A DNA stretch of 47,495 bases from Patescibacteria group bacterium (lineage in GTDB: Bacteria > Patescibacteriota > Microgenomatia > UBA1400 > PJMF01), in the NCBI GenBank assembly GCA_039934415.1, contig JBDTME010000001.1, forward strand, positions 1 through 47,495. The letters are read 5' to 3'. How positions within the stretch are numbered: the first letter of the stretch is position 1; the number at the start of each line of letters is the position of its first letter. This document shows positions 9,383 through 42,658 of the stretch, in pieces. Both the position numbers and the translations under genes were made by a program. Below the pieces are notes generated by a model, which searched no databases, was not told where the DNA came from, and saw nothing but the letters and a program-made list of their open reading frames with translations.

Positions 9383-10189
9383 CTAAAATGAACTGACTTT
9401 TTTTGTGAACCAACTTCCACCAAAGAACAGCAAAGTCACTTCGACGATTGTCCCGCCAGCAGATAAATTTAAATAGTACGATGCGAATAACCCGATCAAC
9501 ACTGAGACTATGGAAAAGAAAATGGACAGAAATAGTGAAGACTTAAAACTTTTTGTCCACTGCATCGCAGTTAAAACTGGGATGATCATCAAGGCACTCG
9601 TTAACAAAATACCTACGATTCTCATCGCTAACGAGATCGCTACAGCAGCTAATGCGATGAGTAAAGTGTTGAGAAAAGTGATCGGTATACCTTGCACTTG
9701 AGCCAGTTCTTCGTCGAATGCAGTCAAAAACAATTCTTTGTAAAATAACCAAACGGCAGTGATTGTCAGTACTCCAAATCCAAAAATGATGAATAAATCT
9801 TGTTGAGTTACTGTTGTGATACTGCCAAATAAATAACTGAATAAATTGACTGTGAAACCATGGCCAAATGAAATGATAATGAGAGCTGTTGCTAGACTTC
9901 CGGATAAGAACACAGCTAAAATCGATTCTTCAAAAATCATTTTTGATTTTCGAATTTTCTCGATACCAATTGATGCGATAAGAGTTGTTGCCAATGCTGT
10001 GAAGACAGGATTGATATTGAAGAGCAAACCAATTGCGATGCCTACCAAAGATACATGTGATAATGTGTCAGCGATCAATGAAAAACGTCTGACCACGAGA
10101 AAAATTCCGATCAATGGTGCAATAATTGCAATCATTAAACCTGCTGCAAAAGCTCTCCACATGAAGTCGTATTGTAATATTTCAAGCAT
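9383..10189 (-). CDS. znuB: Zn/Mn ABC transporter permease
   Basis: RRFSLIADTLSHVSLVG and GILLTSALMIIP motifs. The ATG at 10189 overlaps the znuC stop. Confidence 0.92.
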   Translation of the reverse strand: MLEILQYDFMWRAFAAGLMIAIIAPLIGIFLVVRRFSLIADTLSHVSLVGIAIGLLFNINPVFTALATTLIASIGIEKIRKSKMIFEESILAVFLSGSLATALIIISFGHGFTVNLFSYLFGSITTVTQQDLFIIFGFGVLTITAVWLFYKELFLTAFDEELAQVQGIPITFLNTLLIALAAVAISLAMRIVGILLTSALMIIPVLTAMQWTKSFKSSLFLSIFFSIVSVLIGLFASYYLNLSAGGTIVEVTLLFFGGSWFTKKVSSF

Positions 10190-10964
10190 GATGATGAGGG
10201 TAGTGTTCATGTGGCACAACATGGACATGACCGCCGTATAAATCTTGTAAGTAATTTCCGTACAGCAATTGAGTCGATGGAATGTGACAGAGTAACTTTC
10301 TGTTCAGACAAATCACTGATTTTGCTCGGTGAACTGCCACGTCCACTTCGTGGGTGACGATCAAGATTGTTATACCGAAATCTTTATTCAGCGTTTTGAT
10401 AAAGTCATAAAATTTTTCTTGAGTTTCTAAGTCTACGCCCACAGTCGGTTCATCCAAAAATAAAATTTTGGGTTCACTCGCTAATGCCCGAGCTATGTAG
10501 ACACGCTGTAGTTGTCCTCCTGAAAGTTGATTAATTGATGTGTTTCTTAGTTTTTCTACACCTGCAATATGCATGGCCCAATCCATTTTTTGACGATCTT
10601 TTTTATTTATATTATGGAAGAGGCCAGTTTTTGCAGTGCAACCACTTTCGATGACTTCAGTCACCGTGCATGGGAATTGTATTGAACTTGCTGATATTCG
10701 TTGTGGAACATAACCGAGTTGAAATTTTTTGTCGAATGAATTGATTGGCTGACCGAACAGTCGAATGCTTCCAGTTTGCGGTGATAGTAAACCTAAAATT
10801 GCTTTGAGTAATGTGCTTTTACCAGCGCCATTCGGTCCAATGATGGCAACGTACTCCCCCTCTTTAATACTGAGTGAGACATGGTCCAATGCTTTGACGC
10901 CGTCGTATGAATAACTGACGTCTTCGACTTCTATTGGAAATGGTATGGGCGCATTCGTGTTCAT
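10182..10964 (-). CDS. znuC: Zn/Mn ABC transporter ATPase with His-rich tail
   Basis: GPNGAGKST, LSGGQLQRV, LFLDEP and VTHE; ends HVHVVPHEHYPHHHA; ATGA overlap with znuA. Confidence 0.93.
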   Translation of the reverse strand: MNTNAPIPFPIEVEDVSYSYDGVKALDHVSLSIKEGEYVAIIGPNGAGKSTLLKAILGLLSPQTGSIRLFGQPINSFDKKFQLGYVPQRISASSIQFPCTVTEVIESGCTAKTGLFHNINKKDRQKMDWAMHIAGVEKLRNTSINQLSGGQLQRVYIARALASEPKILFLDEPTVGVDLETQEKFYDFIKTLNKDFGITILIVTHEVDVAVHRAKSVICLNRKLLCHIPSTQLLYGNYLQDLYGGHVHVVPHEHYPHHHA

Positions 10965-11860
10965 CGGCATTCTAATGCTAAGCGCAGGGTAGCTAGATTT
11001 TCTTTCATGACGGAAAAGTAATCACTCCCTGATTGTATCTCGTCATCACTCAAACCTTCTAGTGGATTTAGTACTGCAGTGCGAGCGCCCGTTTCTCGAG
11101 CGATTGTTTCTGATAATTTAGGACTGACTAAACTTTCAAAGAAAATAACTGTAACGTGATTTGCCTTTACAAAATTAGCTACTGTGGCAAGTTGTGCTGG
11201 TGAAGGTTCTTCGTCAGGTGAGATTCCAGATATCGAAACTTGATTCAACCCATACGCTTCAGCCAGATGGCCGAAGGCAGCATGGGAAGTGACAATGTTA
11301 TTTTGTTTGCAGTTTGTTAGTCCTTTTTTATACAGTGTGTCCAGCCCCTCAAGCTGTTCAGTTAACATCTGAGCATGTTGTTCATACTGGGTTTGATGAG
11401 TTGGATCAACTTGGAGAAAGCCTTGGAGTATTTTCTGAACTTGCTTTTTTGCCTGAATGGGACTGAGCCAGAGGTGTGGATCAGTAGCTTTGACATCTTC
11501 ACTCGTGGTGATGACGAGGACAGGTTTTCCTTGCAGATTTTGTTTGATTTTCTCACTCCAGGCTTCCAATCCTTTCCCATTGAGAATCAACAATTTACTT
11601 TGCACGATGTTGCTGATTTGTTGTGGAGATGGGTCGTAATCGTGTGGTTCGCTGCCCGCTGGCGTTAGGTTTGTAACTTTTGCAAAAGAGCCACCAATGT
11701 TTTGGGCAAAAAAGTACAGAGGATAAAAAGAAGCGACTACTGAAATTTTTTTCGGGTCAGTCTGTGACGTTTGTTGCACTGCAAAGAATCTTTGTGTCAG
11801 CAGAAAGCTGAGTACAAAAAAAGCTCCGACAAATAGTATGGCAAAGAGTAATTTCTTCAT
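10961..11860 (-). CDS. znuA: Zn/Mn ABC transporter solute-binding protein
   Basis: GSEPHDYDP, DPHLWLSP, VTSHAAFGHL and LNPLEG metal-ligand motifs of cluster A-I binding proteins. Confidence 0.93.
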   Translation of the reverse strand: MKKLLFAILFVGAFFVLSFLLTQRFFAVQQTSQTDPKKISVVASFYPLYFFAQNIGGSFAKVTNLTPAGSEPHDYDPSPQQISNIVQSKLLILNGKGLEAWSEKIKQNLQGKPVLVITTSEDVKATDPHLWLSPIQAKKQVQKILQGFLQVDPTHQTQYEQHAQMLTEQLEGLDTLYKKGLTNCKQNNIVTSHAAFGHLAEAYGLNQVSISGISPDEEPSPAQLATVANFVKANHVTVIFFESLVSPKLSETIARETGARTAVLNPLEGLSDDEIQSGSDYFSVMKENLATLRLALECR

Positions 11861-12040: not shown

Positions 12041-12610
12041 TTACTCGTTTGCTCGAGAAACGTACTCTCCAGTATCTGTGTCGATAATGAGGTAATCGCC
12101 TACTTTACTGAATAGCGGTGCTTGGACGATCAGCCCTGTTTCGAGTGTCACTGGTTTCTTTGGCGCATTGACCCGATTACCTGCCGTAGCGTCTTCAGTG
12201 TATGTGACTTTGAGTCGGACTTTGAGTGGGACTCGAACACCGATAGCTTTTTCATCGTAAAAAAGAATGTACACCTCACTGTCACTGGTTAAGTAACCGA
12301 GTTTGTCTTCGATTAGTGCTCGAGGAATGGTGACTTGTTCGTAGCTTCGAGGATCCATGAATGCTACTTCTTCTTGATCAGAATACAAGAACTGCATTTG
12401 TCGGGTATTTACATCCAATTCTTCTACTGACTCGGTCGATTTGAAAGTGAAGTCGATCGAATTGCCAGTTTTGACACTTTTCAAACGTGCGCGGGTAAAA
12501 GCAGAACCTTTGCCAGGACTAACGAACTCCGTTTTGGTGACGATGTGTGGGTCGTTTTTGAATAGAATGTAACTGTTTTTGCGGATATTCCCGCCTTTAA
12601 TGATTCCCAT
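12041..12610 (-). CDS. efp: Elongation factor P
   Basis: SPGKGSAFTR loop with the modifiable Lys (codon 12509-12511); KPVTLETG and IIDTDTGEYVSR. Confidence 0.97.
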   Translation of the reverse strand: MGIIKGGNIRKNSYILFKNDPHIVTKTEFVSPGKGSAFTRARLKSVKTGNSIDFTFKSTESVEELDVNTRQMQFLYSDQEEVAFMDPRSYEQVTIPRALIEDKLGYLTSDSEVYILFYDEKAIGVRVPLKVRLKVTYTEDATAGNRVNAPKKPVTLETGLIVQAPLFSKVGDYLIIDTDTGEYVSRANE

Positions 12611-12679: not shown

Positions 12680-13726
12680 TCAAGAAGGAAACAATTCATT
12701 GATGGGAAACAACAAGGTGTCTTCAATGGAAGGTACGTTTGCCAGAAGCATTACTAATCGATCTACTCCAATAGCAATGCCCGTGCATTCTGGTAAGCCT
12801 GATTTCAAGGCATCTATAAAGTCTGTATCTAGTTCGTACTTTGTTTTACCCAGAGCATCACGCTCTCTAAGTTCTGCTTTGAGTCGTTTTTCCTGTTCTT
12901 CTCCGTCGATTAATTCTGAGAAAGCATTTCCGAGCTCGATTCCAGCAAGATATATTTCAAATCGTTCAGCGAATTCAGGGTCGCTGGCTTTACGTTTGGA
13001 TAGGGCCGCTTGTGAAAGTGGATAGTCATAGATGATGGTAGGGCGAGTTTTATCGAGTTTTGCTTCTATCTCATTGAGAAAGATTTGGTTGTAGACCTGT
13101 TCCCAGGTTGTGTCAGAAGTGACTTGGTACCCTTTCTTTTTGGCAACTTCAATCAGTTTTGTCTCTGAGAGTAACTCTTCTCTGCTTACTCCGGCAAACT
13201 TGAGAAATGCTTGTTCGACTGAGTAACGGGGAAAAGGCAGAGTTAAATCAATGTCCAGATCTTGATACTCAAAACCATTGCGTCCCTCTTTCCCATACCT
13301 CGCCTCGGCAAGGGCTGGTAACATTTCTTCCATGTCTTTCATCAAGGCCGTGTAATCAGCATTTGCTCGGTAATACTCTAAAATAGTGAATTCGGGATTG
13401 TGTCTACTACTTCTCCCCTCTTTATTGCGAAAACTTTTGCAAATCTGAAAAATATCCCCAAACCCAGCCGCAAGCAGTTTTTTCATGGCATATTCAGGAC
13501 TAGTTAAAAGATAAGCTGGATATGAGTCACCTTCAGCAAACTTCACTGTTGTATCAAACACTTCTAAATAAGGTTCCGTCCCTGGAGATTTGACTAATAA
13601 TGGAGTCTCCACCTCATGGAAACCCCGAGTTTTGAAAAAGACACGTAAACTATCAATAACCTGTTCGCGAACCAAAAATTGCTGTTTCAATCCATCATTT
13701 TGTTTGATCTTTTGCCAGTTTTTCAT
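12680..13726 (-). CDS. epmA: EF-P lysine aminoacylase (GenX/PoxA)
   Basis: LLTSPEYAMKKLLAAG, FRNKEG..RHNPEFTILEYY, ERFEIY..GIELGNAF and GIAIGVDRL. It has no anticodon-binding domain and lies next to efp. Confidence 0.95.
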   Translation of the reverse strand: MKNWQKIKQNDGLKQQFLVREQVIDSLRVFFKTRGFHEVETPLLVKSPGTEPYLEVFDTTVKFAEGDSYPAYLLTSPEYAMKKLLAAGFGDIFQICKSFRNKEGRSSRHNPEFTILEYYRANADYTALMKDMEEMLPALAEARYGKEGRNGFEYQDLDIDLTLPFPRYSVEQAFLKFAGVSREELLSETKLIEVAKKKGYQVTSDTTWEQVYNQIFLNEIEAKLDKTRPTIIYDYPLSQAALSKRKASDPEFAERFEIYLAGIELGNAFSELIDGEEQEKRLKAELRERDALGKTKYELDTDFIDALKSGLPECTGIAIGVDRLVMLLANVPSIEDTLLFPINELFPS

Positions 13727-13943
13727 GAGGTGATTGTATCACTATCTTGGCAGTTACTGGCTTTTTTCGATCTTTTATTTTACAATTTATGGCAATCAAA
13801 TCCGATTAACTGTTCTTGTTATTCAAATTTCTATTAAAATGGTGTAAAATTCTATTTTAATGAGAGTTTTTTTGTTCTTTATCACAAAAACGGAGACTTT
13901 TTTGCGGGATTTGCAGTAAATCCCCAATAAATTAAATACAAAT

Positions 13944-14375
13944 ATGAACATACTTTCAAAAGCCTTTCCAACTGAGGGTGGTCAGACAACTTTCGGTCTA
14001 CATCTTATGCTCGACGCATACGGGGTGGATCCTTCAAAACTCAGTGACATGAAATTGATATTTAAATATTTGAATGATCTTCCTAAAATTATTGACATGA
14101 AAAAATTGACAACCCCCTACGTTGTTGATTGTGACGCAACAGAAAGCGGAAAAGATCCTGGCGGTATTTCAGGATTTGTGATGATTGCAGAATCCCATAT
14201 CTCAATACATACATTTGCTAAGCGAGGTTTCTTCACGATGGATTGTTACTCATGCAATAACTTTGAAGAAGAAGTTGAAGAGTTACTCGCTTACACGAAA
14301 CAAATATTTCCTTACACTGACTCTGAACTCCAAGTTGTGAAACGTGGATTGAAGTATCCAGTGGAAAATGTGTAA
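13944..14375 (+). CDS. speD: Pyruvoyl-dependent S-adenosylmethionine decarboxylase family proenzyme
   Basis: GLHLMLD and GISGFVMIAESHISIHTF (E-S self-cleavage site); DCYSC. Confidence 0.85.
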   Translation: MNILSKAFPTEGGQTTFGLHLMLDAYGVDPSKLSDMKLIFKYLNDLPKIIDMKKLTTPYVVDCDATESGKDPGGISGFVMIAESHISIHTFAKRGFFTMDCYSCNNFEEEVEELLAYTKQIFPYTDSELQVVKRGLKYPVENV

Positions 14376-14379
14376 AAAC

Positions 14380-15291
14380 ATGTTGCCAATTTTCCCAAAT
14401 TTTAAAAATTTAGAAATTACTGATAAACCAGATCTTGAAAAAATTACTGCACAGTTCCCTCCTTATTCTGATTTTAATTTCGTAAGTCTCTGGAGTTACA
14501 ATACTCTAGAAGATTTTCAACTTTCTTTATTAAATGGGAATTTGGTTTTAAGAATGAATGACTATATCACTTTGGAACCCTTCTATACCTTTATAGGTAT
14601 TGAAAACGTTACTGAGACGATTAGAACGTTGTTACAATTTTCACAGGACAGAATTCAACGCTCAGAACTAAGAGTGATCCCAGAGATAGATCTGTCAAAA
14701 GATGCTCAGAGACTCCATGCAGAATTTGACATTTTTGAAGATCGAGATTGTTTTGATTATATCTATTCATTAGATTTGTTAGTTGCAGCTGAAGGCGGAC
14801 AGTACAAAGTTTTAAGAAATATGTTGAGTAAATTTGTAAGAACTGTTTCTTCATATTCCTTGACTTTAGTTGATTTGCAAGATGAAAATGTGCAACAGCA
14901 AATAATAGAGTTAATACACGTGTGGGGTGCTGCTCAAGGCAGAGAGAAAGATGAGATAGAGAACGAATTAAATGGAGTAAAAAGATTGCTGGATTCTTCT
15001 CAGTACTTAAACTTAATTTGTTTATGCTTATATATTGAAGATCATTTAAAAGCTTTTTTTATTTCAGAAAAGACTCACGATGAATATGCTATGGCACACT
15101 TTCGTAAGGCAGATCCCTCTTTTCCTGGTATCTTCCAGTTCATTGATTATGAAAATGCGAAGTATATGAAGCTTTTAGGTTGTAAGTTTTTAAATTACGA
15201 GCAAGATCTAGGTATCCCTAATTTAGTTAAATCAAAACAATCCTTACATCCAGTAAAATACTTAAAGAAATACAAAATTACTCTAAAATAA
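14380..15291 (+). CDS. Stand-alone DUF2156 (aminoacyl-phosphatidylglycerol synthase C-terminal-like) protein
   Basis: DYIYS, AHFRKADPSFPGIFQFI and LNYEQDLGIPNLVKSKQSLHP; no membrane flippase domain. Alternative start at 14368. Confidence 0.8.
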   Translation: MLPIFPNFKNLEITDKPDLEKITAQFPPYSDFNFVSLWSYNTLEDFQLSLLNGNLVLRMNDYITLEPFYTFIGIENVTETIRTLLQFSQDRIQRSELRVIPEIDLSKDAQRLHAEFDIFEDRDCFDYIYSLDLLVAAEGGQYKVLRNMLSKFVRTVSSYSLTLVDLQDENVQQQIIELIHVWGAAQGREKDEIENELNGVKRLLDSSQYLNLICLCLYIEDHLKAFFISEKTHDEYAMAHFRKADPSFPGIFQFIDYENAKYMKLLGCKFLNYEQDLGIPNLVKSKQSLHPVKYLKKYKITLK

Positions 15292-15524
15292 CTTGGTTTA
15301 CCTAAGCAGTGTTTACTCTCAGAATCGCAAAATTTGTCTTGATAAAGCATTAGACAATTTCAAACATACATTTGTTTGAATATTTACTTGTCGTACTTGT
15401 CTATCAAATTTGCCAATGGATTTGAGGGATCCAAATCCCATTTAAACAGTTCAAAGTGTTTCCTTCTTTACACGCTCTTGTCTTTATTGATATGCTCTTG
15501 TGAAGTGATCTGTTGGTACCACAT

Positions 15525-16337
15525 ATGTTGCAAAATTTAAAAAAAGAATTCACAGCAAAAGTCGCTCTCCTAATTTTTTTGTTCTTCACAGCGTTTTGGT
15601 TAACCCTTTTTCTTTTCGAGAAAGATAGTATTTGGCATGCAGCTTTTGGCAGTAGCTATGGTGTTTTGGCTGCATTTGGTGGGTTTATTGGTCTGAGTAT
15701 TGCTCAGAGATGGGGTGGATTTAAAAGTATTATGGGAAAGTCAGTCTTGTTCTTTTCTTTCGGTTTACTGCTTCAAACTTTTGGACAAATTGCCTACACA
15801 CTTTATATATATGTACTAAAGATCGAGTTGCCATATCCTTCGATTGGAGATATTGGTTATTTCGGGAGCATACCTTGTTATGTATATGGAGTCTTTTTAT
15901 TAGCAAAAGCCTCTGGTGTTAGGTTATCAATTCAAAGGCTTAGAGGACAACTTCTCTTCTTAATTCTTCCTGGTGTTTTGTTATTGCTTTCTTATTTCAT
16001 GTTTTTGCAAGGATATGTTTTTGATTGGTCTAACCCATTGGCTATATTTTTGGATTTTGGTTACCCATTTGGTCAAGCTATTTATGTTTCACTTGCTTTT
16101 TTAACATACCTGCTTTCAAGAAATATTCTTGGAGGTATTATGAGAAACAAGATTTTGTTTTTGTTGTTTGCTCTAGTAATTCAATATCTATCTGATTTCT
16201 CTTTCTTATACTTAGTTGATAAAGGTTGGTGGTTTGTTGGTGGAGTTAATGACTATATCTATTTAGTAGCATACTTTTTAATGACACTTGCACTGATTCA
16301 ACTAAAGACTGTTTCTGATACGTTAACAAAGAAATAA
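15525..16337 (+). CDS. Stand-alone multi-TM sensor-like membrane protein (7-8 TM)
   Basis: Hydrophobic throughout; the PYPSIGDIGYF motif resembles membrane domains usually fused to kinases or cyclases. Confidence 0.75.
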   Translation: MLQNLKKEFTAKVALLIFLFFTAFWLTLFLFEKDSIWHAAFGSSYGVLAAFGGFIGLSIAQRWGGFKSIMGKSVLFFSFGLLLQTFGQIAYTLYIYVLKIELPYPSIGDIGYFGSIPCYVYGVFLLAKASGVRLSIQRLRGQLLFLILPGVLLLLSYFMFLQGYVFDWSNPLAIFLDFGYPFGQAIYVSLAFLTYLLSRNILGGIMRNKILFLLFALVIQYLSDFSFLYLVDKGWWFVGGVNDYIYLVAYFLMTLALIQLKTVSDTLTKK

Positions 16338-16339
16338 GC

Positions 16340-16618
16340 ATGCCCGACATTTATGTCTCGTTAGCCAGCAAAATAATTAAGGATCAGGAAGCTGTGATTG
16401 GTCCGCTTGCTTGGAGTGAGGCTGGTAAGGTGAAGGGTATCAAGGTAATTGATCATACTGTGGAAATCAGTGGAGATGGAAAACAGACGCTTGGGAAATT
16501 AGTGAGTCAATATGAAGGGTTGTTTGGCAGAGCATCAGTCGAGGTGTGTAGAGATGCAATCCGAAAACTGATTGTAGATGTTGATCCAAAAGAGTTACCT
16601 GATATTCTTCTTCAATAG
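16340..16618 (+). CDS. Small soluble hypothetical protein, 92 aa
   Basis: Starts 2 nt after the upstream stop; IIKDQEAVIGPLA...YEGLFGRASVEVCRDA looks like a conserved fold. Confidence 0.8.
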   Translation: MPDIYVSLASKIIKDQEAVIGPLAWSEAGKVKGIKVIDHTVEISGDGKQTLGKLVSQYEGLFGRASVEVCRDAIRKLIVDVDPKELPDILLQ

Positions 16619-16673
16619 TACAATTTTTTCCTTAATGGTCCACAACTTTGATTCTTAAACATAGTATACTGGT

Positions 16674-18041
16674 ATGATCATGGCCGATCAATCAACTTCT
16701 CAGCTTCAGAATGTGACTCAAGAGCTGTACAAGAAGAACTTGGAGTTGGTGAATGCAAACAAAGAGATGACTTTGTTGCAAAGGCTGTATGAATCGATGG
16801 CGGTGAAATTAAACCTCGAAGAGTTAACTCAAGAATTTATCGAAATCATTGTGAAGCAATTAAACTTTCCAGGGGGTTTGGTTACGATTCGCCAACCAGG
16901 AAAACAAAGTTTACAATACCTCGCGTCTGACTTCGAAAAGAAGAATCAAGATATCCACAAAATATTTCATTCGAAACAGGCTGATATGCACGTAAGCCTT
17001 CATCATGATACAAACCTGTTGGTGAAAGCATTCCATCAACAGAAAGAACTCACAACTGAAGATCCTTTAAAAGTGCTTGTACCTCTTCTTTCTCCTGAAA
17101 ATGCAAAGATCATTGCTGAAAAAGGAGAGTTTACTTCTGCTATTACCTATCCTTTGAGCTTCGGTACCCATCAAATTGCCGCATTGTCTATTTTTTTCAG
17201 ACGAAATGTTTCAGAGCTTTCACACTTTGAGCGAGAAGTCCTCAATCGAGTTGCGACAGTGTTTGGAGTGGCTCTGGATCGTGTGATGATTTACCAAGAT
17301 TTAAAATCTGCAAATAAAAAACTCAAGATGCTGGATAAACTCAAAGACGAGTTTGTTTCTATAGCGTCACACGAGTTGCGCACTCCCCTGACTGCTGTCA
17401 AAGGATATTTATGGCTGGCATTGAACAAGTCTCCCACTCCTCTAGCAAAAGAAGTCGAAACAAACTTGAAGATTGCTCACGACTCCACTGAGCGGTTATC
17501 ACGTATGGTGGAAGACATGTTAACGATCTCACGTATTGAAGGAAATCGTTTGAAGTTAGAAGTTGAAGAGTTCGATCTCAGTGAGTTGACCAAGCAGGTC
17601 TATGACGAATTGTCGATCCGAGCATCAACCAAACACATTGACTTTACGGTTAATTTGCCCCCTACACCCATTCATTATAAAGGTGATAAGGAAAAAATTC
17701 GAGAGTGTATCATCAATATTACTGGTAATGCGCTCAAGTTTACCCCAGAACAAGGTAAGATCAGTATCACGCTTGCCCAAGTGCGTGAGTCAATTACGAT
17801 CAAAATAGCAGACACTGGACCTGGTATTTCAGCAGAAGATAAACATAAATTATTCCAAAAGTTTTCGAAGCTGGACAGTTCATATCAAAAAGTCAAAGAG
17901 AGTGGCACTGGACTAGGTTTGTATATCACGAAACAAATTATCGACATGCATGGAGGTTCAATTACCGTTGATTCGCAACTCGGCGAAGGCACTACGTTTG
18001 GCATCGTTTTACCCTTAAAATCCAAATTGGAGGCACAGTAG
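16674..18041 (+). CDS. Soluble GAF-HisKA-HATPase sensor kinase
   Basis: H-box SIASHELRTPLT, N-box NITGNALKFT, DTGPGI and GTGLGL; no TM segment. Confidence 0.93.
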   Translation: MIMADQSTSQLQNVTQELYKKNLELVNANKEMTLLQRLYESMAVKLNLEELTQEFIEIIVKQLNFPGGLVTIRQPGKQSLQYLASDFEKKNQDIHKIFHSKQADMHVSLHHDTNLLVKAFHQQKELTTEDPLKVLVPLLSPENAKIIAEKGEFTSAITYPLSFGTHQIAALSIFFRRNVSELSHFEREVLNRVATVFGVALDRVMIYQDLKSANKKLKMLDKLKDEFVSIASHELRTPLTAVKGYLWLALNKSPTPLAKEVETNLKIAHDSTERLSRMVEDMLTISRIEGNRLKLEVEEFDLSELTKQVYDELSIRASTKHIDFTVNLPPTPIHYKGDKEKIRECIINITGNALKFTPEQGKISITLAQVRESITIKIADTGPGISAEDKHKLFQKFSKLDSSYQKVKESGTGLGLYITKQIIDMHGGSITVDSQLGEGTTFGIVLPLKSKLEAQ

Positions 18042-18044
18042 TAT

Positions 18045-18437
18045 ATGTCAGACAAAAAAAAGATTTTTCTCGTTGAAGACGATGATCGGTTATTACAACT
18101 CTATAACCAATTACTCGTGGCAGATGGTTATGAAGTAGAAACATGCAACAACGGTTTGGATGCTTTGACCAAAATGCAGGAAGGTGGTTTTGATTTGGTG
18201 CTGCTTGATATCATGTTACCAGGAAAAGATGGTTTGGAAATTCTGGAAGATATTCAAAAGAAAAAACCAAAAAATCCTATTCGCTCGATTATCTTACTCA
18301 CGAATCTCGCAAAAAATGAAACTATTGCGCGTGCCCTAAAAAACGGTGTTGACGGGTATATTATCAAAAGTCGTTACTCACCAGAGGAATTTCTCGCTGA
18401 AGTAAAAAAAACACTTGAAGGAAAACCGATTTCTTGA
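18045..18437 (+). CDS. Single-domain response regulator (REC only)
   Basis: LVEDD, LLDIMLPGKDG, LTN and YIIK. Confidence 0.93.
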   Translation: MSDKKKIFLVEDDDRLLQLYNQLLVADGYEVETCNNGLDALTKMQEGGFDLVLLDIMLPGKDGLEILEDIQKKKPKNPIRSIILLTNLAKNETIARALKNGVDGYIIKSRYSPEEFLAEVKKTLEGKPIS

Positions 18438-20521
18438 TCTCAATGACTGCTGCCCAACGTCTTCAATTACATGAAGACCCAGATCTCTATAAAAAAGTAT
18501 TTCAACTCTCTCCAGAGGCTATTGTCATCATTGACCGTACTGGCCATATCATAGAGATGAATGATCGGATGACTGAATGGTTGGGATACCCAAAAAAAGA
18601 CGTACTCCATAAGCACCTCCTCCAATTACCATTTCTGACACTCAAAAATAAACAGCTACTGATCAAGAACTTTTTAACACGAATATCTGGTAAAGAACGA
18701 TCAGAGTATCAAGCTGAATTTTTGACAAAGGATGGACATGTTCGGATAGGCAAGATCAAAGGCGCATTGATTCGAGATGCCTCAGGTCATGTTGTGGCTG
18801 ATTTGGCAATGATCACTGAAGCGACCCAAGAACTCCGAGAAGAAACAGCAATTCGGAAAAAAGAAGAAATTCTGGAAGCAGTGAACTACTCTGCCCGTAC
18901 CTTCTTAAAATCACAAGCAAATCAAGCAGATTATGAAAAAGTACTCAAATCAATCGGTGAATCTGCTTCTGCTAGTCGAGTAGTATTGGTGATTAATGAC
19001 CTCTTGGGTCAACGTTACGAGTGGGCTGCCCCAGGAATTGCATCAATTGTCTTAGATAAGAAATATCCCAATCTTTTTCAAAAAGCAAACGAGTTATCAG
19101 AGTTTTCTAAGAAGCTGGAGGACAATAACATTATCTTCGGTATTGAATCAGATTTTGACAAAGATGTTCAAGCTGTTTTAAAGCGATATAAAATAAAGTC
19201 GTTTGTTCTACAACCCATTTTTGTCAACAAAAAGTGGTGGGCCTACTTGTGTATCCATGACTGCTTAGAAGAAAGAAAGTGGTTGTCAGAAGAGATTGAT
19301 GCGTTGGTTGTCGCATCCAAAATCATCGGTGCTGCGATGGAGAAAAACTTGGTTGAACTGAAACTGCGAGAAACTGTTGAGTATTGGAGACATGAAAAAG
19401 AGCGAGTGACGGAAGAAATCGCAAATACCCAAAAATTCAAGCAAGCAGTGGATAGTGCTACTGACGGGGTGGTAATTACGACAGTTGATCGAAAGATCAT
19501 TTATATTAACCGTGCATTAGAAAACATGACTGAGTACTCGTCGGCAGAAGCAGTCGGAAAAAATTCTGATTTTCTGACAATAGCTAAGACACCTCATCAA
19601 ATTTTAACGAAGTTATGGGAAACACTTGATGCTGGTCAACCGTTCAACTCTGATGAAGTTGTGATGAGTAAGAAGGATGGAACTGAACTGCCAGTTCGGT
19701 TATCTGTGTTTGCGATCAATGAGAAAGGCAAACCTCAATTTTTTGTTGGAATACTTGAAGACATCACACGACGTCGTGAAATTGATCGCATGAAAACTGA
19801 ATTTATCTCGATTGTTTCTCACCAACTCAACACTCCTCTATCAGCCATGAAATGGTTTTTGGAATTGCTACAGATGGGAAAAGCCGGACCTCTCTTACCG
19901 AAACAACAAGAGTTTGTCCAAAATTTGATCGATTCTAATATTCGAATGATTGCGTTAGTACGGTCATTACTCAATATTAGTCGCATTGAATCAGGCCGGA
20001 TAATTATCGATCCTCACTTGACTGATATACGGGTGTTAATTGATGATGTCTTAAAAGAAGTAGCACCTTTTTTTGAGAAGAAGTCTCAGAAGATCAATGT
20101 GAATATCGATGAAAATCTGTCAAAAGTGATGCTTGATCCTCGTTTGATTAGGAATGTGTACTTAAACCTGCTTACCAACTCCTCAAAATACTCACCAGAA
20201 GGAACGGAAGTAGATATCAATATTTTTCAAAAAGATGACGAGCTTGTTTCTCATGTTATCGATCATGGATATGGGATACCCAAAAATGATCAAGATAAAA
20301 TCTTCACTAAATTTTTTAGAGCAGCGAATGTTGTTCGATTGGAAGCTGACGGCAGTGGTTTAGGTATGTACTTGGTCAAAATAGTGGTAGAGTCATCAGG
20401 TGGGGAAATTACATTGAACAGTGAGGAAAATAAAGGTACAGACGTCGGTTTTGTACTGCCACTTAAGGGTGTGAAACCAAAATCAGGTGATGTCTTCCTT
20501 GATCAAAACGCTTATTCGTGA
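18434..20521 (+). CDS. Soluble PAS-GAF-PAS-HisKA-HATPase sensor kinase
   Basis: Two PAS-like segments, H-box SIVSHQLNTPLS, NLLTNSSKYS, DHGYGI and GSGLGM. Alternative ATG at 18443. Confidence 0.92.
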   Translation: MISMTAAQRLQLHEDPDLYKKVFQLSPEAIVIIDRTGHIIEMNDRMTEWLGYPKKDVLHKHLLQLPFLTLKNKQLLIKNFLTRISGKERSEYQAEFLTKDGHVRIGKIKGALIRDASGHVVADLAMITEATQELREETAIRKKEEILEAVNYSARTFLKSQANQADYEKVLKSIGESASASRVVLVINDLLGQRYEWAAPGIASIVLDKKYPNLFQKANELSEFSKKLEDNNIIFGIESDFDKDVQAVLKRYKIKSFVLQPIFVNKKWWAYLCIHDCLEERKWLSEEIDALVVASKIIGAAMEKNLVELKLRETVEYWRHEKERVTEEIANTQKFKQAVDSATDGVVITTVDRKIIYINRALENMTEYSSAEAVGKNSDFLTIAKTPHQILTKLWETLDAGQPFNSDEVVMSKKDGTELPVRLSVFAINEKGKPQFFVGILEDITRRREIDRMKTEFISIVSHQLNTPLSAMKWFLELLQMGKAGPLLPKQQEFVQNLIDSNIRMIALVRSLLNISRIESGRIIIDPHLTDIRVLIDDVLKEVAPFFEKKSQKINVNIDENLSKVMLDPRLIRNVYLNLLTNSSKYSPEGTEVDINIFQKDDELVSHVIDHGYGIPKNDQDKIFTKFFRAANVVRLEADGSGLGMYLVKIVVESSGGEITLNSEENKGTDVGFVLPLKGVKPKSGDVFLDQNAYS

Positions 20522-20564: not shown

Positions 20565-20930
20565 ATGAAAAAAGTGTTAGTCGTCGAAGACGATAAATTT
20601 TTAGCCAATGCATATCGAGCTGGATTTGAAGGTGAAGGCCTCGAGGTAAGTCTAGCCTTTGATGGTGAGGAAGCGCTGGCAATGGCTAATCAAACAAAAC
20701 CAGATGTGATTATTTTAGACATTTTAATTCCTAAAATTGATGGATTTAGCGTACTCCAGCAGTTGAAGGCGAATAAAGAGTTAGAGCACATTCCTGTCAT
20801 CATTGCTTCAAATCTTGGTCAAAAACAAGATATCGATAAGGGATTGGAATTGGGAGCGACCGATTTTATTATCAAAAGTGAGTCGTCAGTGACAGAGATT
20901 TTGAATAAAATCAAAAACGTATTGAAGTAA
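20565..20930 (+). CDS. Single-domain response regulator (REC only)
   Basis: VVEDD, ILDILIPKIDG, ASN and FIIK. Confidence 0.93.
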   Translation: MKKVLVVEDDKFLANAYRAGFEGEGLEVSLAFDGEEALAMANQTKPDVIILDILIPKIDGFSVLQQLKANKELEHIPVIIASNLGQKQDIDKGLELGATDFIIKSESSVTEILNKIKNVLK

Positions 20931-41637: not shown

Positions 41638-42048
41638 ATGTCTCAACCAATTGGTGCATGTATCTTAGTTTTTAATTCCAAAGGGCAGTTGCTTTTAGGG
41701 AAACGGTTAAATAGCTATAAAGCAGGCTATTTTGGATTTCCTGGAGGCAGAATTGAGGTCGGTGAACTTGTTTTAGATTGTGCAAAGAGAGAGTTAAAAG
41801 AAGAGACCGGTCTTTCTACAAAAGAAGTGAAGTATTTGGGTCTGGTCAAAGAGAATCAAGGTGATTACGACTTTATTCATTTTGTATGCAACGTTAACGT
41901 GGGTGATCAACAACCCATCTGTATCGAACCAGAAAAATGTGAGAATTGGGACTGGTTTGATCTAAATAAACTTCCTAAAGAAATACTTGAAGGGCATTTA
42001 GCAGCAATTAAATTATGGAAAGAGAAGAAAAATTTCATAGAGATTTAA
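41638..42048 (+). CDS. Nudix hydrolase (MutT/NUDT15-like)
   Basis: FPGGRIEVGELVLDCAKRELKEETGL box; EPEKCENWDWF. Confidence 0.92.
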   Translation: MSQPIGACILVFNSKGQLLLGKRLNSYKAGYFGFPGGRIEVGELVLDCAKRELKEETGLSTKEVKYLGLVKENQGDYDFIHFVCNVNVGDQQPICIEPEKCENWDWFDLNKLPKEILEGHLAAIKLWKEKKNFIEI

Positions 42049-42052
42049 AAAT

Positions 42053-42658
42053 TTAACTTCCTATGAGTGCTTTCTTATAACCAAACTTCTCCCCGACTTT
42101 GAACTGAACGAGGCTGAAAATGAGTACATTTATCAGCATGATGTAAATAATGAAGCCGCTGTTTGCAAATGACAGTCTTTCAATAGTAAATAGTGTTATC
42201 AATACTCCAACGGAGGTTGTTAACCATGGCCATGCTACTTCTGTTTCAGGGTATTTATATGATTTTACGACTGTTGGAATTGCTGCAAGTCCATCGGCCA
42301 TAATACTAAAGAAAATTGCGACATTCCCAGTTTTAGTGATTAACCATAAAATTAAACCAATGATTGAGAAAAACCCACAGATTAGATCAAATTTCGTAAT
42401 CTTCCATTCCGCTTTTTTATTGACAAGAGAAGCGATGAAAATAAGAAAAGGAAGAAAACCCACACTAAATGTCATCAGAGATTCAAAACCTACACCTTGT
42501 TTTATTTGTGCGGCGAATGCGATGAACGGTGCGATTGACCAAAGCAGAAACGACACTCTATTTGGCTTCACTCTCCCTTTCACCGTATCAATAAGGTACG
42601 CTATTGTACCGAATGCACTGAGCACAGTACCTAAGATGACAAAGTTCTGATTTAACAT
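42053..42658 (-). CDS. Multi-TM hypothetical membrane protein
   Basis: Hydrophobic; GRVKPNRVSFLLW and ADGLAAIPTVVKSY..PETE. Confidence 0.8.
   Translation of the reverse strand: MLNQNFVILGTVLSAFGTIAYLIDTVKGRVKPNRVSFLLWSIAPFIAFAAQIKQGVGFESLMTFSVGFLPFLIFIASLVNKKAEWKITKFDLICGFFSIIGLILWLITKTGNVAIFFSIMADGLAAIPTVVKSYKYPETEVAWPWLTTSVGVLITLFTIERLSFANSGFIIYIMLINVLIFSLVQFKVGEKFGYKKALIGS

Follow-up and report, generated by a model that had tools for sequence, protein, structure and literature searches.

A conserved gene module of Patescibacteria that joins a pyruvoyl decarboxylase, a stand-alone DUF2156 transferase and a sensor kinase

Several described enzyme groups bear on the locus analyzed here. Arginine decarboxylases (ADC) derived from SpeD are common in the candidate phyla radiation (CPR), and CPR members of the SpeDA/SpeDC groups have already been reported; the proline of the HTWPE motif is invariant in true S-adenosylmethionine (SAM) decarboxylases (AdoMetDC) but not among the ADC forms (Li et al. 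2023, PMC10407285). Aminoacyl-tRNA is the donor for all characterised DUF2156 domains; those named in the literature consulted act on lipids, and a basic helix between the two GNAT halves is used for tRNA binding (PMC7334510). VlmA, Orf11, PacB and DhpH are double-GNAT aminoacyl-tRNA transferases with small-molecule amine or hydroxylamine acceptors (PMC12945691). Among stand-alone DUF2156 proteins, the solved structure 2HQY (BT_3689) is reported to hold acetyl-CoA, and deletion of HPB8_1270 in H. pylori lowers RNase J acetylation, this homolog contributing to lysine acetylation (PMC10700544). We have analyzed a window, that is, the whole stretch of 47,495 nucleotides at positions 1-47,495 of contig JBDTME010000001.1 (assembly GCA_039934415.1), in which a speD-like gene is followed by a gene for a DUF2156 protein. 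The source genome is of Patescibacteria type, consists of 13 contigs with a total of 1.18 Mb, and is 99.8% complete by marker genes. A first-pass annotation of the window had singled out this gene pair as a possible amine-aminoacylation pathway.

The window carries one copy, minus the transporter gene, of a module whose distribution in Patescibacteria is wide but patchy and which has no described function. The core of the module consists of a pyruvoyl-type amino-acid decarboxylase and a soluble DUF2156 double-GNAT transferase, usually with a small transporter (EamA or f10) as well; a three-part sensor kinase, with a receiver, is joined to this core. The module genes clustered in the window are as follows.

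13944-14375, + strand: SpeD-like pyruvoyl decarboxylase proenzyme (PF02675), 143 aa, probably an arginine decarboxylase (SpeDA-like)
14368-15291, + strand: stand-alone DUF2156 double-GNAT transferase (PF09924), 307 aa; likely start at 14380 (303 aa)
221 bp: gap between the DUF2156 and TM8 genes
15513-16337, + strand: TM8, a membrane protein with 8 transmembrane (TM) segments, 274 aa, of an undescribed family; a stand-alone sensor-type module by its structure matches
16340-16618, + strand: s92, a soluble 92-aa protein of an undescribed family; predicted from a complex model to be the cytoplasmic partner of TM8
16674-18041, + strand: soluble GAF-HisKA-HATPase histidine kinase (Pfam; translation without membrane segment)
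18045-18437, + strand: receiver-only response regulator (PF00072, 84.5 bits)

The conservation of this arrangement was examined in 80 loci that carry the closest relatives of the DUF2156 gene, taken from species-representative genomes, nearly all of them metagenome-assembled genomes (MAGs) of Patescibacteria. All open reading frames (ORFs) of these loci were clustered, and recurrent families were named with Pfam. The DUF2156 gene, which defines the set, is present in 80/80 loci. Its most constant partners are ones that the first-pass annotation had not considered, namely TM8 and s92, just downstream, and the histidine kinase. TM8 is found in 73 loci and is the immediate neighbour of DUF2156 in 66; s92 is found in 63, always after TM8, and a homolog of the GAF histidine kinase follows s92 in 55. 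An EamA/DMT transporter is present in 49 loci, with a second EamA cluster in 5 more, and the receiver family in 29. The decarboxylase is of one of two kinds: PvlArgDC (PF01862) occurs in 27 loci and the SpeD-like protein in 20 (PvlArgDC only, 26; SpeD-like only, 19; both, 1).

The adjacency of decarboxylase and DUF2156 is far beyond chance, since 33 of the 46 loci with at least 3 kb of flank on both sides of DUF2156 have a pyruvoyl decarboxylase no more than 1.9 kb away; by a rough estimate, one single-copy gene lies less than 6 kb from another in ~1% of 1-Mb genomes. Where present, the decarboxylase is the direct neighbour of DUF2156 in 15 loci and is separated from it by one transporter gene in 26 (EamA in 18+3+1, f10 in 4), and the gap between the two has a median of 842 bp and a maximum of 1890 bp. 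SpeD-like proteins and PvlArgDC have unrelated folds and are nearly exclusive of each other across the loci, and each can occupy the same slot. For example, L010 and L023 share the gene order HK-s92-TM8-DUF2156-EamA-X-f11-f32-f47-f46-efp-f45, where X stands for PvlArgDC at one of these loci and for a SpeD-like protein at the other, and a similar swap within a shared order is seen in L059 vs L077. Thus the speD-DUF2156 pair of the first-pass annotation is conserved in Patescibacteria, with a decarboxylase of either of two unrelated folds. In the window, the speD stop codon (14373-14375) overlaps the DUF2156 frame as opened at its first ATG (14368); DUF2156 homologs and an identical database record start at the second ATG (14380), 4 nt past that stop. 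With either start codon the two genes are tightly coupled on the + strand, as had been annotated.

Other features recur at a few loci only. Agmatinase adjoins the module in L028 and L033, which counts in favour of the amine pathway proposed below. DUF2156 and EamA are separated by the gene of a classical single-domain GNAT acetyltransferase (PF00583) at L013:4933-5520 and L018:6890-7594. Many of the module-carrying MAG records (L006-L079) are titled 'uncultured Gammaproteobacteria', 'Pseudomonadales' or 'Flavobacteriales', taxon labels that are probably wrong.

A search for DUF2156 homologs found 434, mostly from Patescibacteria. In a sample of 301 genomes of the phylum, DUF2156 is matched in 31 genomes, in 19 of them strongly and over the full length, and the sampled relatives from the same family, order or class as the source genome gave no match. 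A SpeD homolog is present in 50 of the sampled genomes and PvlArgDC in 22; the 19 strong carriers of DUF2156 have a decarboxylase somewhere in 12 cases and within ~3 kb in 6. The DUF2156 gene of the window has a GC content of 0.317 (0.273 at third codon positions), ~2.7 standard deviations below the genome mean of 0.403 as measured in 900-bp genome windows (standard deviation 0.032; 2.5% of windows below 0.335), which agrees with its annotation as more AT-rich than its neighbours; the TM8 gene has a GC content of 0.337. Low GC and patchy spread would fit acquisition by horizontal transfer.

The best overall explanation of the module, to which we assign a probability of roughly 0.5, is a pathway with an agmatine-making decarboxylase, an N-acylating DUF2156 enzyme, a transporter and a split kinase. 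The SpeD homolog would decarboxylate arginine to agmatine, and the DUF2156 enzyme would, at about even odds, N-acylate this amine, with aminoacyl-tRNA (as for VlmA, Orf11 and MprF) or acetyl-CoA (as suggested for BT_3689/2HQY and HPB8_1270) as acyl donor. The transporter (EamA elsewhere, here perhaps f10) would carry the amine, or the product of its acylation, through the membrane, and the split sensor kinase would control or respond to the amine pathway. The earlier proposal that the pair makes an amine and aminoacylates it stays alive because the pair is conserved and decarboxylation of SAM by the window SpeD is very unlikely; what must be given up is aminoacyl-tRNA as the sole candidate donor.

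The SpeD-like protein matches PF02675 (AdoMet_dc) with 80.8 bits against a cut-off of 25, and TIGR03330 with 70.7 bits, under the NCBIfam AdoMetDC equivalog cut-off of 75.65. Its self-processing Ser84 (ESH), catalytic His89 and Cys103 align to S63, H68 and C83 of the T. maritima enzyme, and Ala replaces Pro (HTF-A-K at the site of HTWPE in true AdoMetDC). In a tree of 58 CPR homologs, including those from 40 further CPR SpeD loci that were fetched, a branch with support 100/97 splits a clade of 11 members from one of 47. The smaller clade has HTWPE in 9 of its 11 members and holds all five copies that are adjacent or fused to BpsA. The larger clade holds the window SpeD and every module copy, and contains subgroup IIa (with the window protein; ESHISIHTF, then A, I or V and in some members P), a group with [YF]SH and another with Q-x-IETS (IIc). 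The last of these looks like the ornithine decarboxylase (ODC) type, judging by its signature motif, which is absent from the window SpeD. The BpsA fusions are proteins of 443-457 aa with a BpsA-type (branched-chain polyamine synthase) domain and a C-terminal AdoMetDC domain (L100:2987-4318 and L104:2945-4318), and separate BpsA and SpeD genes adjoin in L091, L098 and L101.

The whole genome was searched with PF01564, PF01861, PF01862, PF00491, PF04371, PF01916 and PF02784, and holds no SpeE, BpsA, PvlArgDC, agmatinase, agmatine deiminase, deoxyhypusine-synthase-like enzyme or pyridoxal-phosphate-dependent ODC or ADC. The annotated lack of an adjacent spermidine synthase therefore extends to the entire genome. 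A phylum-wide PF01564 search returned mostly weak matches to ~500-aa and methyltransferase-like proteins and was left out of the co-occurrence analysis. A SAM-specific enzyme with speE elsewhere, the case that the first-pass annotation had named against its own proposal, is thus very unlikely in this genome: SpeE and BpsA are absent and the diagnostic Pro is lost. If SpeD were nevertheless a true SAM decarboxylase, the pair would belong to ordinary spermidine-type synthesis with a partner encoded elsewhere; AdoMet_dc membership, the intact Ser/His/Cys triad, the Pro retained by some module copies and the weak SpeE-like neighbour in the relative L092 would agree with such a role. A SAM decarboxylase is very unlikely here, however, because the Pro is replaced, the protein lies outside the BpsA-linked HTWPE clade and no SpeE (PF01564) or BpsA (PF01861) is encoded; the sub-threshold equivalog score and the replacement of SpeD by PvlArgDC in the same slot argue in the same direction. 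PvlArgDC, which fills the SpeD slot in L010 vs L023 and L059 vs L077, is a known arginine decarboxylase family; ODC-like SpeD copies occur in that slot too. We infer, fairly strongly, that the window SpeD is a neofunctionalised enzyme that converts arginine to agmatine and that no enzyme in the genome can use decarboxylated SAM or convert agmatine further. Taken together, it is probable that the window enzyme makes agmatine and that no known route in the organism takes this agmatine further.

The DUF2156 protein matches PF09924 (LPG_synthase_C/DUF2156) with 83.1 bits (cut-off 27.5) over profile positions 78-296 of 298; it has no membrane segment, and no NCBIfam model matched it. A profile of 32 homologs searched against PDB had 2HQY (BT_3689) as its sole match (E value of 5e-42, full length), and no MprF chain was matched at E<=1. 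Because the profile matches only 2HQY and no MprF chain, the protein is assigned by sequence to the stand-alone group and not to MprF proper. There are 22 invariant residues in the CPR DUF2156 family, and the basic helix between the GNAT halves has G143, K147, R150 and K154 in the window protein, with G143 and R150 at least 90% conserved in the 32 homologs. That the closest solved relative is reported with acetyl-CoA suggests, by analogy, acetyl-CoA as a candidate donor beside aminoacyl-tRNA. As to the acceptor, no candidate CDP-alcohol phosphatidyltransferase (PF01066) was found in the whole genome, so the organism apparently cannot make phosphatidylglycerol (PG) or phosphatidylserine itself, and PG, were it the acceptor, would need scavenging.

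These observations also bear on two other explanations of the DUF2156 gene. In the first, the locus is an envelope or acid-stress island in which DUF2156, as a soluble synthase of the MprF type, transfers an amino acid from aminoacyl-tRNA to a membrane lipid (scavenged PG, diacylglycerol or a glycolipid), and the decarboxylase and transporter are a separate arginine/agmatine exchange system of the AaxB/AaxC type, under a common sensor kinase but with no shared metabolite. The membership in PF09924, whose characterised domains act on lipids (PMC7334510), is in keeping with this, as are the adjacent membrane sensor, the genomes with DUF2156 but no decarboxylase, and the frequent translational coupling of the decarboxylase to the transporter rather than to DUF2156 (in L002, for example, the end of speD is the start of EamA). 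However, the window has no transporter gene at this place and speD is coupled directly to DUF2156; more generally, the tightness of decarboxylase-(transporter)-DUF2156 across two unrelated folds exceeds the needs of co-regulation. The family profile recognizes only the soluble BT_3689 type, there is neither a membrane anchor nor a flippase, TM8 resembles sensor modules and not MprF, and the host makes no PG of its own. We regard lipid aminoacylation as unlikely, although it is the most credible of the alternatives. In the second explanation, which appears improbable, DUF2156 would acetylate protein lysines from acetyl-CoA, the activity proposed for HPB8_1270, and would have a regulatory link to the decarboxylase, such as acetylation of the decarboxylase, the transporter or the kinase. 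It draws on the acetyl-CoA reported for 2HQY and on the decreased RNase J acetylation in the H. pylori deletion (PMC10700544), but the evidence from H. pylori is indirect, coming from genetics, the ligand of 2HQY rests on the statement in that same paper, and the constant presence of amine-forming enzymes and small-solute transporters beside DUF2156 is left unexplained.

N-acylation of an amine, our preferred explanation, includes a sensor, which TM8, s92 and the soluble GAF kinase look like they form together. TM8 has no Pfam or NCBIfam match. Its AF2 model has a pLDDT of 91. This model and the Atlas model match, with TM 0.73-0.81, the membrane modules present at the N-terminus of GGDEF/EAL proteins and histidine kinases; a Foldseek search against PDB gave nothing at E<=0.001, with only weak rows for 7-TM receptors and rhodopsin. 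TM8 was also considered as a split MprF flippase or anchor, and this was ruled out by the lack of a PDB match at E<=0.001 and by the Atlas matches to sensor modules. The description of the DUF2156 protein as flippase-less in the first-pass annotation is therefore borne out, since the protein itself has no membrane segment and the adjacent 8-TM protein is like sensor modules and not like MprF. No Pfam match was found for s92, whose model (pLDDT 92.5) has a weak likeness to the N-terminal half of H-NOX and to PatA_N; the PDB likeness to H-NOX (E>0.5) was too weak to be used as an assignment. A model of the TM8-s92 complex gives an ipSAE of 0.84, compared with 0.00 for the best of 3 controls. As a benchmark, 58 of 80 solved complexes attain the mark of the TM8-s92 model, as do 2 of 110 mismatched pairs. 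The three runs agree in 100% of the contacts, the pLDDT of the partner is at least 87, and the interface involves the invariant cytoplasmic loops of TM8 (W67, G68, S72, G75, G207, G208). The model supports, but does not prove, docking of s92 on the conserved cytoplasmic loops of TM8. The kinase that follows (16674-18041) has no membrane segment in its translation, and for this reason the three proteins look like one split membrane sensor kinase.

At two further loci, L092:2328-6079 and L110:2381-5867, TM8-s92(-kinase) stands after a SpeD homolog and there is no DUF2156 gene, its place being taken by methyltransferase-fold or weakly SpeE-like genes. Because L092 and L110 keep the trio with SpeD and without DUF2156, their gene content suggests that the sensor follows amine metabolism rather than the transferase itself, and the cassette seems to accompany amine enzymes in general. 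A more elaborate, and rather doubtful, proposal is signalling in which agmatine or a diamine would be made by the decarboxylase, acylated by the DUF2156 enzyme with an aminoacyl or acetyl group, released by the transporter and received by the TM8/s92/kinase trio; if true, this would be a tRNA- or CoA-derived small-molecule signal in ultra-small episymbiotic bacteria.

A candidate for the missing transporter is encoded 27 kb away in the window.

42053-42658, - strand: f10, a polytopic membrane protein of 201 aa, candidate module transporter, with homologs that adjoin DUF2156 elsewhere

Homologs of f10 adjoin DUF2156 in L028, L041, L059, L062 and L080, and in four of these five, those with a decarboxylase, f10 lies between decarboxylase and DUF2156, which is the place of EamA elsewhere. 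The f10 protein matches no Pfam family and no informative Atlas cluster; from the position of its homologs it is perhaps the module transporter here, and the parts of the module may be scattered in the source genome. A NUDIX hydrolase gene (41638-42048, + strand) is tail to tail with the f10 gene, and a NUDIX homolog is directly upstream of DUF2156 in L060.

Several points weigh against amine N-acylation as the function of the module. To our knowledge, the known DUF2156 enzymes form esters on hydroxyls and not amides on amines, and a decarboxylase with an antiporter can act alone as an acid-resistance device. The module EamA transporter has no homolog in the source genome. The SpeD copies of the module are heterogeneous (IIa, some with Pro; [YF]SH; ODC-like Q-x-IETS), so that, as far as these motifs indicate, the amine need not be agmatine in every module. 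Finally, decarboxylase and DUF2156 are not obligate partners, because 7 of the 19 genomes with strong DUF2156 matches lack any SpeD or PvlArgDC and in ~60 of the 301 sampled genomes a decarboxylase occurs but DUF2156 does not. The two are strongly associated in the subfamily nearest to the window. No paper in the literature library that was searched combines DUF2156 and polyamine.

The module is flanked in the window by the following genes.

9383-11860, - strand: Zn/Mn ABC transporter, in the gene order upstream of efp
12041-12610, - strand: efp (TIGR00038, above cut-off), a neighbour outside the module
12680-13726, - strand: epmA (TIGR00462, 352.9 bits; cut-off 286.9), a neighbour outside the module
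217 bp: spacer between epmA and speD, with divergent genes on either side
18434-20521, + strand: second histidine kinase, PAS-GAF-PAS (Pfam); peripheral, module membership uncertain
20565-20930, + strand: second receiver (Pfam); peripheral, module membership uncertain

The back-to-back arrangement of speD with epmA-efp, on which the first-pass annotation had remarked, is thus real, and from it came the suggestion that the decarboxylase and DUF2156 might supply or alter the divergent EF-P/EpmA system. EpmA acts by activating a carboxyl group, and an amine that has been decarboxylated has none for EpmA to adenylate. Synteny speaks against the link as well, since epmA/efp is beside the module only in the window and in the close relative L038 (EpmA 86% identical) among the 80 loci. 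The EF-P of the window carries its target lysine (PGKG, within SPGKGS), and contig 8 has a KamA/EpmB-like radical-SAM gene (15539-16417, L081) that scores 153 bits, far under the EpmB equivalog cut-off of 369, and is presumably the lysine 2,3-aminomutase serving EpmA. With EpmA, the EpmB-like gene and EF-P with its target lysine all present, beta-lysylation of EF-P is, by gene content, self-contained in this genome. The shared 217-bp spacer between divergent genes would suit a connection, as would the fact that EpmA is a paralog of lysyl-tRNA synthetase (LysRS) and that fusions of aminoacyl-tRNA synthetases with DUF2156 exist (the LysX NCBIfam model; ErdS, PMC7334510). Adjacency of LysRS or other aminoacyl-tRNA synthetase genes was also tried as a clue to a lysyl donor and was dropped, as it occurs in 2 of the 80 loci with roughly 1 expected by chance. 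The EF-P link is ruled out by synteny and chemistry, its chances being close to nil, and epmA-efp is an unrelated housekeeping pair that happens to be a neighbour.

On the other side of the module, the second kinase gene encodes a large cytoplasmic protein and overlaps the first receiver gene at the stop codon of the latter; the other module loci among the 80 compared do not conserve this kinase. Both receivers (18045-18437 and 20565-20930) are without an output domain. An Rfam scan of 13000-17000 gave no match at E<=0.1; a promoter scan at the locus found no more sites than in shuffled sequences, and a terminator scan found none.

Patescibacteria have almost no biosynthetic capacity, and many of them keep this module despite such minimal biosynthesis. 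If the amine pathway outlined above is true, it would give a function to the large stand-alone DUF2156 group, for which there are so far the structure 2HQY and one indirect genetic result, and a partner pathway to the arginine and ornithine decarboxylases lately recognised as derivatives of SpeD. Two new protein families, TM8 and s92, would be established too, and these appear to make up a split membrane sensor together with the soluble kinase. The parts of the module are all small, and soluble or easily expressed, so the question is directly testable.

Each part of the module can be compared with a described system. The window SpeD shares with SpeDA/SpeDC (PMC10407285) the retained triad, the loss of Pro and a genome without spermidine synthase; the published enzymes cluster with SpeY, HSS, CASDH/CASDC or SpeD/SpeE, whereas the window SpeD has a DUF2156 transferase as its partner, and its genome encodes no polyamine enzyme to act downstream of it. 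This transferase is most like BT_3689 (2HQY) and HPB8_1270, which are also stand-alone soluble DUF2156 proteins of ~300 aa with two GNAT halves, and it has the motifs D-x-x-F, DY, E, KAD and (E/Q)DLG in common with BT_3689. With the C-terminal domain of MprF (aminoacyl-phosphatidylglycerol synthase) it shares PF09924 and the conserved basic helix between the GNAT halves, but there is no membrane or flippase domain or split copy of one, the host is without PG synthesis, and the transferase has amine enzymes and a sensor kinase as its partners. VlmA (valanimycin), Orf11 (BD-12), PacB and DhpH, which are likened to it by function, are soluble double-GNAT enzymes as well, theirs transferring from aminoacyl-tRNA to an amine or hydroxylamine; they belong to antibiotic clusters of Actinobacteria, whereas the window module is without further tailoring enzymes. 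The amine of valanimycin is reportedly also derived from an amino-acid decarboxylase (VlmD). AaxB/AaxC of Chlamydia, said to be a PvlArgDC and an arginine/agmatine antiporter, resemble most of the related loci in that a pyruvoyl arginine decarboxylase is coupled to a transporter gene. In the module, however, the transporter is DMT/EamA or f10 instead of an APC antiporter and is absent from the window locus, and a transferase and a sensor kinase have been added.

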